The translations under genes were made by a program, and so were the position numbers. From Bacillota bacterium (GTDB lineage: Bacteria; Bacillota; Dehalobacteriia; UBA4068): a DNA stretch of 31,874 nt. This document shows positions 16,537 to 29,601 of this stretch, piece by piece; the stretch's first letter is position 1; the number at the start of each line of letters is the position of its first letter. The DNA is taken from the NCBI GenBank assembly GCA_030528765.1, contig JAUMYD010000002.1, forward strand, positions 1-31,874, in the 5' to 3' direction. The notes under the pieces were generated by a model. That model had not been told where the DNA came from. It worked only from the letters and a program-made list of their open reading frames with translations, and did not search any database.

Positions 16537-18714
16537 ATGACTGACCGCATCAATGAAGGTCTGCTCCAGGACCTCAATGCGGAAGAACACCAGAATAATG
16601 CCCCCTTGGCGGAAGAAAGACAGCCTTTCGAAGAATACCTGGCCAGTGTTTCCTTAGCCAAAATGCCGCTCCCGGAAGGAGAAAACCTTCCGGAGGATAA
16701 TCGGGAAAGCTTCGCTTTCTTCCTCAGCGGTATCGTACAGGCAAAGGGGGCAGTGATCCCCAAAAACAGCAATATCATACAGGAAGAGGGGGAAGAGGCC
16801 TCCCAAAGCAGCAATATCATTCAGGAAGAGGGGGAAGAGGCCTCCCAAAGCAGCAATAGCATATCGGCACTGCCCTCCCTGAGGATCCTTTCTCACGGGG
16901 ATAGTACCCTGAACAATCAGTTCTGGGTGATCGAGAGCGGTATGCTCCACAGAATGAAAGCGGAAGATGCCTCCGTCGAAAGCATCTTTGCGGCCCTGAA
17001 CGAGGGAAAAACGCTGGTGCTGCCCCAACCCTGCTTTTCCGAGGAAGACCATGAATTCCTGGGCTATGACTATAATAATCCCCTGGTGCTGAACGCCAGC
17101 AAATTCAATGGCAGCCTTTATTTTCATCTTTGTGATGCGAAAGATGCCTATGCTCTTGGGCAGCAAGAGATACCGCAGTATCCCAATCTGCACTGGTATG
17201 ACCATGTTTTGGATTTCTTTGCCAAGTTCTTCGGCTGCCGACGCGAGATCTGTGAAGAATGGGACAAGTTCCAGGAACAAAGCACGATGCGCAGCAAAGA
17301 TACGATCGATTTATTCAAACAGGCTTTTCAGGTAGGGCGCACCTTTCCCAATTTTGAAACGAACATGGGGGTCATTCCCTATGCTTCCAAGCTGCGGCTG
17401 AATATGTTTGTCGATATCATGACTACGCAAGAACAAAAAAGAGCTCTGGGCCCGACTCAGGAGAAGCCGACAGTCAAAAGGCGTGATGACTCTATTTCTG
17501 AGCAGCTCCCCGATGAGAAACCCCTGAATATCCCCGAAGACAAAGAAGAGCAGCGCGAATGGTTCAAAAGCCAATACGAGCAAAAGAAGAAGGAAGAGCA
17601 GAAGGAGGAGGCAGCTGAATTTAAAAACCCGGGCAAAGCCTACCTGCAGCTGCTCAGCAGCAAGAAAAAAGAAGAGCAAAAGCAGCTAAATGCCAAGATC
17701 CATAACAATTTCCTCAACAAAACACAGAAGCACTACTTCCAGAGGGAGTTCCTTTCTTCCCACGGCGGGGAGATCAGCCTTTCTGCAGCCTATTTCACTG
17801 CCCTGGCCTTTGGTGTAGCAGAATCTCTCAAGCTTGAGAACGCAGATAACGAGATTCATGCCTTCCTTCTGGGAGAACCGCATAATCTTCCCGACAATTT
17901 CCAGCAACTCTTCGAAAATGTCCAGAGTAATCCCCAGAACACGGTCTCAAAAAAGATTCTCGCCAAAGGTATCCTCCGTATGTGGGAGGGCGTGATAAAA
18001 CAGGAGGATATGTTGAGCCCCTGGAGTCTGCAGCTTGCAGGCATGGCCACACGCCTGAAAGCTGCCCTTACGAAAAGAAGAACAAACCCGGATCAGCATC
18101 TGGTGGGGCTGCAGGTCCAACTGAAGCCCAACAACACCACGCGTGAGCTGGAAGAAATCTATTCCGGGATCAATAATGCAGAAAGGTGTGCCCTGCCGAA
18201 GGATCTCGGGAAAAACAAAGAAATCAGCCAAGAAGAAGCTGAGAGCGCGTACTCTATTTTAGAGGGACAGGTAAATTATGCCTTCCTCTGCCGCCTGAAC
18301 AAGGTGCCGCAAAACGAACGCATCCAGTTCATAGCAAATAACAATAACGCCTATACTGCCTTGAAAATAGAGATGAGCTCAGATGTGATAAATAAGCTCT
18401 CCGGGTATGATGATCCTGCCCAGGCTCTGCTGAACGGCAATGCTATCTATGATTACCAGAAAAACCGCATACCCGAAAATGAGCTAGATACGAAAGACAT
18501 TTCAAACGAGGACCTCATTGATATAAGCAAACGCGCCATTCAAACTGCGCAAAACAAAAAAGCACCTGAAAAGAAAAAGAAAAATGTCGGCTTTAAAGAT
18601 GATCTTGAAGAGGTCATAGAAGTAAAGTCTTTCAAAAAGGAAAACAAAGCGAACACCCAATCCAAGCAGAACTCAATCGATCTATCTATAAATGATTATC
18701 TTATTCAGATATAG
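16537..18714 (+). CDS. Array paralog P2 (725 aa)
   Basis: AAGGAG SD, MTD start; WYDHVLDFFAKFFGCRREIC, ISLSAA, SPWSLQL, GQVNYAFL, tail KKKKNVGF...SFKK. Confidence 0.88.
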   Translation: MTDRINEGLLQDLNAEEHQNNAPLAEERQPFEEYLASVSLAKMPLPEGENLPEDNRESFAFFLSGIVQAKGAVIPKNSNIIQEEGEEASQSSNIIQEEGEEASQSSNSISALPSLRILSHGDSTLNNQFWVIESGMLHRMKAEDASVESIFAALNEGKTLVLPQPCFSEEDHEFLGYDYNNPLVLNASKFNGSLYFHLCDAKDAYALGQQEIPQYPNLHWYDHVLDFFAKFFGCRREICEEWDKFQEQSTMRSKDTIDLFKQAFQVGRTFPNFETNMGVIPYASKLRLNMFVDIMTTQEQKRALGPTQEKPTVKRRDDSISEQLPDEKPLNIPEDKEEQREWFKSQYEQKKKEEQKEEAAEFKNPGKAYLQLLSSKKKEEQKQLNAKIHNNFLNKTQKHYFQREFLSSHGGEISLSAAYFTALAFGVAESLKLENADNEIHAFLLGEPHNLPDNFQQLFENVQSNPQNTVSKKILAKGILRMWEGVIKQEDMLSPWSLQLAGMATRLKAALTKRRTNPDQHLVGLQVQLKPNNTTRELEEIYSGINNAERCALPKDLGKNKEISQEEAESAYSILEGQVNYAFLCRLNKVPQNERIQFIANNNNAYTALKIEMSSDVINKLSGYDDPAQALLNGNAIYDYQKNRIPENELDTKDISNEDLIDISKRAIQTAQNKKAPEKKKKNVGFKDDLEEVIEVKSFKKENKANTQSKQNSIDLSINDYLIQI
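16768..16858 (+). repeat. 42-bp in-frame tandem repeat (2 units + partial) in P2
   Basis: Encodes SNIIQEEGEEASQS twice; one synonymous mismatch (ATA/ATT). Confidence 0.95.
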
Positions 18715-18770
18715 ATCCTGTTCGCGACAAAAAAGCACTGATGCACCGCCCCACGAATAAATCAGGATCC

Positions 18771-18810
18771 AAGCTTTAGCGGCAGCAGCTCGCTCCTGCC
18801 GCTAAAGCTT
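18771..18810. other. Strong intergenic hairpin between P2 and P3
   Basis: 15-bp perfect stem AAGCTTTAGCGGCAG / CTGCCGCTAAAGCTT, no T-tail. Confidence 0.8.
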
Positions 18811-27693: not shown

Positions 27694-27697
27694 AAAA

Positions 27698-29601
27698 ATG
27701 ACGGATCTTTTTGATGAATTCTTGATTGCCCCGCAAGGGAACCGGGAACAACGCGAAGCAATCACTTTCGAAAGCCCGGAGGATTATCTGCAAAAAACGG
27801 CCACAGCATGCTTTTCTTTGGTGGGGGATAAGGCAGCAATAGAAACCGGTTTTTCCCAGTTCCTTTCTTCGCTCCGTGCAACGAAAGTAACGGATTCCTC
27901 CACCAAAACCCACTTCGTGCGGGGTCAGATCGAGAACCACTTCTGGAAAATGGGTGCGCGTTCTCTTTATAACGTTCAAATCTTTTCAATTCACTATATT
28001 CTGGAGCAGCTGAAAGCGGGGGAAAGCTTTGTTCTGCCCAAGCAGATTCAAAATAATCCGTACCTGGATTACACAGATCCCCTGATTTTGAACGCCACAC
28101 GCCGCGGGAATCAGCTCTATGTATATCTTTATGATAAGCAGGATGCCTATCTTCACCAGAATGATCTTCTGCCGGACATGGAAGAACAGCCCCATTGGTA
28201 TGATTACGTTTTGGATTTCCTTGCCAAAATCTTCGGAGGCCGCCGCGGGATCTGCCAGGGATGGGACTCTTACTATGGCAACAACCAGAAGCGCAGCTAT
28301 GAAAACTTACACCAACTCCATTATCTGCTGGAAAATGCCAGCCGCAAGAGTACTTTTGTTGAAAGCTCTCCCTCCATTCCCTTTAAATCCCTGGAAGAGA
28401 ATGAAGCATACCTGACTGATCTCTTTGCGCATAACAGCAGCGGGAAGCTCACCGGCTATTCTCAGATCCAGCCCCTGCAGATGGGGGAAAAGGAAGAAGA
28501 GAGCCTGATTCCGGAGGAAAAAGCAAAAGATACATCGAAAGACAGAAAAGAAAAGAATGTTCTTGGCTACTTCCAGAGTAAGGATCATATCACGGAGACT
28601 ACAAAGCCCTGGATCATCAGCAAAAAAACCCGGAAAAAGCAGATGGAGCTAAACAAGCTGATCCATAACCTCAGCCTGCCTTTGCTAAACAGGACGGCGT
28701 ATATCCATGACCTCAAGCTTTACACCTACAGGGAGAATGTTTCCCTCTGTGCCTGCTTCCGCATGGCTTTGTTTTATGGGCTGGCGGAAACGCATCCGAT
28801 CCCCAAAGATATGCTGACCGCTGCCATCCGGGGAAAAACTGCTGCGCTGCCCATGGATTTCAAGAATAGCTGCAGCTATCTTTTGCAGAATCCGAGATCC
28901 CCTGAGATAGCGACAATCATAAACAGGGGCCTGGCAAATATGGAAAACGAGCTGCTGCTGCAAAAGGGTCTTTTGAGCCCCTGGAGCCTGCAGATCGTGA
29001 ATGCACTGAACCTGTGCGACTCTGCACTGCAAGAACAGAAAAGCAGAGCTGAACTGCCCAGCAAAAACAAAAAATACCACCGACAGGACAAGCTGCGGGA
29101 TTTTGAATATTCACCAGATCCGAAAAACCAGCCCCTGCTGGAGCTCTACAAAAAAATACAGATCGCTGAAGACCTGTTTCTGGAGCCGAAAAAGCCCCTG
29201 AGCGCTGACAGCATTATTTGCATCTGCCAGGGACAGCTGGCCTACTCCTTTCTTGAGCAGATCAGCCGGCAGCCGCCAAATGAGCGGAAAACATTCATGG
29301 AAAAAATATGGAACAATACAAACAGCTTGAAAAAGGCATGCGTGGTTTCATAAGGAAAAACATCAAAAACTACAAATTTGCGCACCACAGCATTCTGAGC
29401 GGCCAGCTCCTTCAGGATTTTCAGAATCAGAAAAATGAGATCCTTTCTGAAAGCCTGACGGAAACGCCCCTGATTTCTGAGGAAAAGCCCCCAAAAGAGC
29501 AGAAAAAGCAAGTGATGCCGCAGAAAAAAGAAAAAAAGAAAGTAAGCTTTGCGAAAAATTTTGCGAATGATATCATCGACATCCAAAGCTTCAAAAAATA
29601 G
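27698..29601 (+). pseudogene. Array paralog P7, split by one frameshift in an A6 tract
   Basis: Adding one A at 29301-29306 joins 27698..29353 with 29308..29601 into 634 aa ending KKKVSF...SFKK; WYDYVLDFLAKIFGGRRGIC, SPWSLQI. Confidence 0.8.

Follow-up and report, generated by a model that had tools for sequence, protein, structure and literature searches.

Regulators of protein phosphatase 1 (PP1) dock through the RVxF motif, for which the available part of PMC5847313 gives the consensus R/K-K/R-x(0,1)-V/I-x-F/W/Y. According to the available parts of PMC10731240 and PMC5847313, basic residues precede the motif and acidic residues follow it in PP1 regulators. A pattern of this kind was examined in a stretch of 31,874 nucleotides of a Bacillota genome (contig JAUMYD010000002.1 of assembly GCA_030528765.1), the whole of which is called the window here. 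The forward strand of the window contains, at 14564-29601, a tandem array of seven paralogs, P1-P7, each of about 600-770 residues. A sequence-only reading had proposed that the C-terminal tails of these paralogs carry a eukaryote-type RVxF motif, a selected short linear motif possibly aimed at the phosphatase of a eukaryotic host. The first part of this proposal was supported, in that conserved islands and codon usage indicate that the tail holds a real, selected short motif. The second part was not; PP1 docking remained a matter of the pattern, and a link between the tail motif and eukaryotic PP1 is unsupported, since nothing beyond the pattern match appears to connect the two.

Conserved islands in the paralog tails

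The tail segments under study run from 18571, the first Lys codon of KKKKNVGF in P2, to 29601, the last base of the P7 stop codon, exactly as the sequence-only reading had placed them. The pattern [KR]-x(0,1)-[VI]-{P}-[FW] matched the homologous tail site in five of the seven paralogs, as KNVGF in P2, KSVSF in P3 and P4, RVAF in P6 and KKVSF in P7. P5 has the degenerate form KALTF, with Leu at the Val position, and gave no match, while P1 ends in ..NGIGFNK and lacks both the basic run and the motif; both paralogs had been described in this way before. The predicted downstream stretches EVIEV, EITQI, EITNI and DIIDI were all present together with SFK, which occurs in six of the seven tails, and a block [ED]-[VI]-x-x-[VI]-x-SFK lies downstream of the basic run in every tail except that of P1. 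A third conserved island, N-I-I-A-x-D-D followed by L-I-D-x-S, was found upstream in the same tail. V-x-F and SFK had also been said to be held at a fixed position. The aligned islands are indeed kept, but the spacing from the Phe to SFK is 11, 11, 11, 13 and 12 residues, and the distance from SFK to the C-terminus ranges from 1 to 41 residues.

The RVxF pattern is common in this genome. It was found in 360 of the 1050 open reading frames (ORFs) of at least 300 residues (34%), giving about one match per 1000 residues, and in the last 60 residues of 75 of the same 1050 ORFs. Shuffled paralog tails matched the pattern in 9-16% of cases (20,000 shuffles each). A single match therefore means little, and the earlier caution that Lys-rich tails can match so short a motif by chance was well placed. 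The repeated match at one aligned position is explained by common descent and conservation and not by chance. The tails of P3 and P4 are identical because both sit in a near-identical repeat of 1191 nt; they are not independent, so that four independent RVxF matches remain.

Conservation was scored on the five independent paralogs, leaving out P1, which has no comparable tail, and P3 as the duplicate of P4. IESFKAET was the ninth best non-overlapping eight-column block among 647 scored columns, corresponding to the 92nd percentile. The KKKKSVSF block lay at the 73rd percentile and the linker just before it at the 2nd-15th. The invariant columns of the tail were N and I of the upstream island, F of V-x-F and S-F-K, each in 5/5 sequences, together with E in 4/4, and the best-kept element is SFK-x-E, not V-x-F. 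The check proposed for the motif, conservation of V and F relative to their flanks, gave a divided picture: within the array F is kept in 5/5 and V in 4/5 sequences (Leu in P5), and outside it the RVxF pattern was present in the last 80 residues of 0/10 homologs with C-termini. These ten comprise an eighth paralog from the same genome and nine outside relatives, the N-terminal fragment P0019 being left out. The kept residues are encoded by different synonymous codons, with V as GTC, GTT or GTA and the Ser of SFK as TCT, TCG or AGC (TCN versus AGC), which points to selection on the amino acids. Recurrence of the motif in unrelated proteins was not seen in the six frames of this genome, where the only other copy was one probable chance match, or in 4134 frames of 74 loci from other genomes that contain homologs of a neighbouring kinase-like gene, where there was no match.

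The structure of P4 was predicted with AlphaFold2 using a nine-row paralog alignment. The model contained an N-terminal alpha/beta domain, a helical domain at residues 340-628 with pLDDT values of 85-93 and a tail at residues 629-697 with pLDDT values of 31-42. The tail thus appears disorder-like in a prediction that models the adjacent domain well from the same alignment. Conserved islands within poorly conserved, disorder-like flanks, the arrangement that characterises a short linear motif (SLiM), were found in the paralog tails. The RVxF pattern, which is itself unspecific, falls in a low-confidence, disorder-like region in five of the seven tails, four of them independent.

A candidate docking tail and its alternatives

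The reading that we favour, and to which we give about an even chance, is that the tails are a family-specific docking module for a shared partner, presumably a bacterial one. The module would span some 80 flexible residues at the C-terminal end of the protein and carry three short stretches of conserved sequence, namely N-I-I-A-x-D-D..L-I-D-x-S, a basic run with [VL]-x-F after it, and [ED]-[VI]-x-x-[VI]-x-S-F-K-x-E-[TN]. Through such a docking peptide every copy in the array would bind the same partner within the bacterial cell. This partner could be another protein of the cell or another copy of the family, and the island would probably become a strand or an amphipathic helix upon binding. 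The spacers between the islands vary by 0-2 residues, which together with the variable distance of SFK from the end fits a modular peptide and neither a fixed element of the fold nor a strict C-terminal tag. No signal peptide or membrane segment was detected in the paralogs, the maximum Kyte-Doolittle 19-residue mean being at most 1.39, and the first 30 residues are acidic with a net charge of -4 to -7; these features are signs of a probable cytoplasmic location. If the tails are a docking module of this kind, the RVxF match would be coincidental, the product of a [VL]-x-F core in a tail that is rich in Lys.

Several points weigh against this reading. Docking of a partner by the tail module is a candidate function. 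Low pLDDT values obtained with nine rows are no proof of disorder in the tail, and the paralog alignment is shallow, with few lineages behind the evidence for selection (five independent sequences). The motif is limited to one array in one genome and may be of recent origin. The G+C content of the low-G+C island that holds the array is 48.1% compared to 53.3% for the genome, which is compatible with a foreign origin. The arrangement of basic run, V-x-F and acidic flank resembles that of genuine PP1 binders in detail, and the neighbouring kinase-like protein bears a likeness, in language-model features only, to clusters with the LepB_N domain.

One alternative is that the islands of the tail belong to the fold of the protein itself, with strands or a helix packing in cis on the helical or the N-terminal domain, and that AlphaFold2 misses them because of the shallow alignment. 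The hydrophobic residues of the islands alternate or recur every 3-4 positions (V.F, I..I.SF), and DSSP assigned a weak helix to residues 681-691 of P4. Three distant homologs contain the segment ..KETGKMP[SDT][FY][KRG].. right after the last helix, which MAFFT aligned with E-I-x-x-I-x-SFK-x-E. This segment may be the ancestral counterpart of the SFK island, but is a lead only. In the model of one distant relative, P0010, residues 551-560, which make up most of the segment, have a mean pLDDT of 61, above that of the rest of its tail. Packing in cis is nevertheless unlikely, as the same nine rows yielded a confidently modelled domain and a poorly modelled tail, the spacers vary, and a segment of some 50 charged residues with poor conservation lies between the domain and the islands. 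In addition, P1 and the ten distant relatives keep their domains without the V-x-F island.

The tails could instead be net-positive translocation or recruitment signals, for example for the type IV coupling protein of a conjugative element, in which case the paralogs would be exported. Positively charged C-terminal signals serve type IV substrates, and each of the seven paralogs has a net charge of +1 to +6 over its last 50 residues. A VirD4/TraG-type coupling protein is encoded on another contig (C133) of the same genome, and a neighbour cluster of five ORFs represented by a coupling protein was found in five of the 74 kinase loci. We consider export decidedly unlikely, since secretion signals are usually degenerate while S, F, K, F, N and I are invariant here, and SFK has no constant position relative to the C-terminus. 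No secretion genes, including those of type IV systems, were found in the window, and a search of the 85%-complete genome for WXG100 proteins gave none.

The tails might also be alike only because the copies share a recent ancestor or exchanged sequence by gene conversion within the array, without the motif being selected. The tails of P3 and P4 are identical through the 1191-nt repeat, and the first ~275 codons are common to P4 and P5, showing that segmental exchange occurs in the array. Outside the repeat, however, F, S-F-K, N and I are invariant in tails that have otherwise diverged at the majority of positions and at many synonymous sites, and the linker beside the motif is among the least conserved parts of the alignment by percentile, which makes this explanation very improbable. 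Other eukaryotic motifs that were compared by eye (LxxIxE, KEN, SIM, PIP box and the beta-clamp motif) each fit at most one or two paralogs and were therefore dropped as chance.

In the sequence-only reading, the tails mimic RVxF and dock PP1 in an animal host or a gut protist, which would make the array a set of host-directed effectors; this is extremely improbable. Its support comes from the pattern in five of the seven tails, in a region of low pLDDT, and from an organism that lives in animal guts. Effectors of intracellular pathogens are known to include the LepB_N domain, and clusters with this domain have a language-model similarity of 0.92 to the neighbouring kinase-like protein. No PP1-type (PPP) signature, GDxHG..GDxxDRG..GNH[ED], was found in six frames of the 85%-complete genome, so any PP1 would be foreign. 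The basic run before and the acidic residues after the motif agree with what the available part of PMC10731240 describes for PP1 regulators, and a bacterial type III effector associating with plant PP1 is reported in the available part of PMC10273071. The likeness to true PP1 binders thus seems real at the level of pattern and flanks, although it concerns about five residues in a Lys-rich tail. The frequency of the pattern among long ORFs and shuffled tails argues against the proposal, as do the Leu of P5, the missing basic run of P1 and the distant homologs, none of which has the pattern in its tail. The strongest conservation falls on SFK-x-E, which to our knowledge is not a PP1-docking motif. 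The paralogs have no signal peptide and secretion genes are not nearby, and both the look-alikes and the relatives of the kinase-like protein point elsewhere, being from free-living Thermodesulfobacteriota and from ordinary gut and rumen commensals (303 stretches), respectively. A fuller version, to which we give hardly any credence, would have the 18-kb low-G+C island, with the PI-kinase-like gene and the seven paralogs, encode a host-directed effector set of a spore-former from the gut, in which a Lys-rich run resembling a nuclear localisation signal is combined with a working RVxF mimic that recruits host or protist PP1, and the SFK block makes a second contact of a kind not described before.

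Were the tails to bind PP1, the array would be a rare example of a commensal gut Firmicute copying the docking code of a eukaryotic phosphatase, in seven variants side by side. The more cautious conclusion concerns method, namely that a short common pattern can lie within a tail module whose conservation is genuine but confined to one family.

The array, its family and its neighbours

The features of the array and its neighbours are given in Table 1. Ribosome-binding sites of the AAAGGAG type precede the paralog starts, and the genes look real.

Table 1. Coordinates of the paralogs, the direct repeat and the neighbouring genes. Positions are those of the window unless a contig is named.
Feature	Position	Strand	Remarks
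Phosphatase	9167..10936	-	SpoIIE-type PP2C domain; divergently oriented
Kinase-like protein	11229..13700	+	823 aa; catalytic-loop CGNVDRHPGN and IDND; upstream of array
P1	14564..16387	+	most divergent copy in array; tail ends ..RTNSFLAKPSNGIGFNK, without basic run and without SFK island
P2	16528/16537-18714	+	tail motif KKKKNVGFKDDLEEVIEVKSFKKE at 18571..18642
P3	18920-20903	+	broken, pieces 18920-19294, 19231-20160 and 20214-20903; tail motif KKKKSVSFKDNFTEITQIESFKAE at 20796..20867
P4	21068-23161	+	tail motif KKKKSVSFKDNFTEITQIESFKAE at 23054..23125
P5	23326-25629	+	tail motif KEEKALTFEKDLVEVQQIDSFKKE at 25438..25509; SFK kept, RVxF pattern failed
P6	25669-27693	+	tail motif PKKARVAFKSDESFTEITNIKSFKNE at 27583..27660; spacer 2 residues longer
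P7	27698-29601	+	tail motif KEKKKVSFAKNFANDIIDIQSFKK at 29527..29598, stop codon directly after
Direct repeat, 1191 nt	copy 1 20701..21891; copy 2 22959-24149	+	10 mismatches
Eighth paralog P0016	L025:10003-12024 (= G000:C186)	+	673 aa, divergent; long Lys/Ser/Arg-rich tail

Two of the paralogs are interrupted. P3 consists of three ORF pieces with an in-frame TGA (20211-20213) and is a broken gene in this assembly, and P7 is split into ORFs at 27698-29353 and 29308-29601, which overlap at 29308-29353, with a change of frame at an A6 run (29301-29306). In both genes the frame breaks fall at short A-runs, located at 20082-20086, 29150-29156 and 29301-29306 of the window. In contigs of the sequencing runs X1 and X3 an extra A behind 29300 would join both P7 ORFs, and a further extra A behind 29149 in the same contigs would break the P7 frame. 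One X3 contig has an extra A behind 20081, in the P3 region, and the in-frame TGA of P3 is CGC in X3 and X4 contigs. Depth is low here (2-5), and the A-run and TGA variants may stem from errors of sequencing, from differences between strains or from misplaced paralogs. The 1191-nt repeat covers the P3/P4 and P4/P5 junctions, each copy covering a tail, the intergenic DNA after it and some 275 codons of the gene that follows, and could be a recent segmental duplication, a gene conversion or an assembly effect. A tandem repeat of 42 nt in 3.2 copies lies within P2 at 16731-16863 and encodes repeated ..NIIQEEGEEASQSS.. units.

The paralogs gave no accepted match to Pfam, NCBIfam (P4 only), PHROGs or PADLOC. 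One sub-threshold Pfam row was obtained, for P2 with His_Phos_1 (E 0.037), and the distant relatives gave sub-threshold Pfam and PHROGs rows only, with no PADLOC match. When the family profile was searched against PDB sequences, a single row was returned, at E 0.94. Comparison of the P4 model with the PDB using Foldseek gave no match at E <= 0.001, and the wide VIA-align searches reached best Z values of 5.9 for P4 and 5.2 for P0010, both to generic helical bundles and below the noise guide of the tool. The P0010 model has a mean pLDDT of 71. No usable feature match for P4 was obtained from the ESM Atlas, and neither model has a known fold match.

A profile search of 1.84 billion representative proteins returned 19 matches, made up of eight products of the window, the eighth paralog and ten distant relatives. 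All matches share the core D-x-x-x-D-F-F..G-x-R-x-x-x-C-x-x-W-D and the helical domain. Neither the V-x-F nor the SFK motif is present in the tail of the eighth paralog. A search of 40 relatives with P4 did not find the family, nor did a profile search of 72 other genomes of the class. Searches for homologous proteins with P4 and with a 17-row alignment returned the window's own four proteins only, and a related-locus search with a three-row alignment found 0/99 candidates in the genome collection and one contig of 1044 nt in the metagenome collection. About 3.5 kb from the eighth paralog, an ORF on the reverse strand (L025:5315-6535) contains the motif HPFYNGNGR, which by eye we take to resemble that of Fic-domain proteins. 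The real, if modest, interest of the locus lies in the carrier of the motif, an orphan family of ~700-residue proteins with no known domain or fold match, present in eight copies in one 1.8-Mb genome and nearly unseen elsewhere. The array further displays active segmental exchange and frame-breaking changes at A-runs.

The 1.8-Mb assembly is 85% complete and encodes Spo0A (Spo0A_C, 152 bits) and SpoIVA (358 bits); the organism is therefore an endospore former. The stretch was present in sequencing runs from animal feces and gut, in up to three studies. At least half of the sampled words were present in one run only, with small shares in the runs of the second and the third study, and no RNA run was listed among the runs with the stretch.

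The kinase-like protein upstream of the array scored below the Pfam gathering cut-offs for PI3_PI4_kinase (22.8 versus 27.1 bits) and Fam20C (21.2 versus 26.8). A short alignment with FAM20A covers the catalytic loop, and GN-x-DRH-x-x-N followed by D-N-D is invariant in a 12-sequence alignment of the kinase family. Its language-model look-alikes were 'PI3K/PI4K catalytic domain' clusters at 0.95, followed by the clusters with LepB_N, the top look-alikes being those from Thermodesulfobacteriota. The kinase family occurs widely among gut and rumen bacteria from several phyla, often in more than one copy, and 74 loci were fetched from the 303 confirmed stretches. Members of the family often adjoin very large proteins without a Pfam match. 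None of the 74 loci contained the paralog family, so the adjacency of kinase and paralogs is no evidence of a functional link, and the linkage was dropped as an argument for the function of the paralogs. A homolog of the PP2C phosphatase was found in only five of the loci, two of them from one metagenome-assembled genome with identical scores. A complex prediction of the kinase-like protein (823 aa, two rows) with the P4 tail (residues 625-697, seven rows), run without controls, gave scores of 0.00 and 0.00 and is evidence neither way. CotH has Lys/Ser-rich substrates, and the paralogs were considered as spore-coat substrates by analogy; this idea was set aside, as Pfam CotH gave no match to the kinase at E <= 0.1.

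A paralog of the kinase in the same genome (C201:2364-4514, reverse strand) is without the catalytic motifs and looks like a pseudokinase. The segment KKRMKFA of the kinase-like protein (residues ~695-701, window ~13311-13331) aligns with KKRVAFA of this paralog, in a conserved C-terminal block of the 12-row alignment. KKRVAFA matches RVxF, a further case within this genome in which a segment rich in Lys readily fits the pattern.

The regions upstream of the kinase-like gene (11120-11175) and of P1 (14390-14450) share a T-rich stretch, TTTTTTCTTTTTTT, followed by a box, TGCTATTAT / TACTATTAT, and may be duplicated promoters. The kinase gene and P1 are about 860 nt apart, and the non-coding DNA between them contains terminator-like hairpins. 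An Rfam scan of the window gave two tRNAs only, tRNA-Gly(tcc) and tRNA-Arg(tct), at 6288-6443 on the forward strand, about 5 kb upstream of the low-G+C island.

Comparison with known systems

The neighbouring kinase-like protein has the catalytic-loop GN-x-DRH-x-x-N and D-N-D in common with the PI3/PI4-kinase-like and Fam20-like atypical kinases. It differs from them in that its Pfam scores lie under the cut-offs, and none of the 74 loci with kinase homologs contains a member of the paralog family. Substrates of type IV systems resemble the paralogs in their net-positive tails, and the genome encodes a coupling protein on another contig. The paralog tails differ from them in having invariant residues instead of a charge pattern and a variable distance to the C-terminus, with no secretion genes in the window.

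The RVxF interactors of PP1, such as PNUTS and, with an RVxF-like motif, the RSV P protein, share with the paralogs the basic run, V-x-F, the acidic residues and a region predicted to be flexible. KKKVSFA of P7 and KKKKSVSF of P4 fit the consensus in the available part of PMC5847313. The paralogs are, however, bacterial and without an export signal, and neither P1, the eighth paralog nor the nine outside relatives with C-termini have the motif. The SLiMs of the type collected in ELM differ from the paralog motif in that the latter is seen in one array only, but the paralog tails likewise carry islands of 3-8 conserved residues in a low-confidence region, joined by variable spacers.

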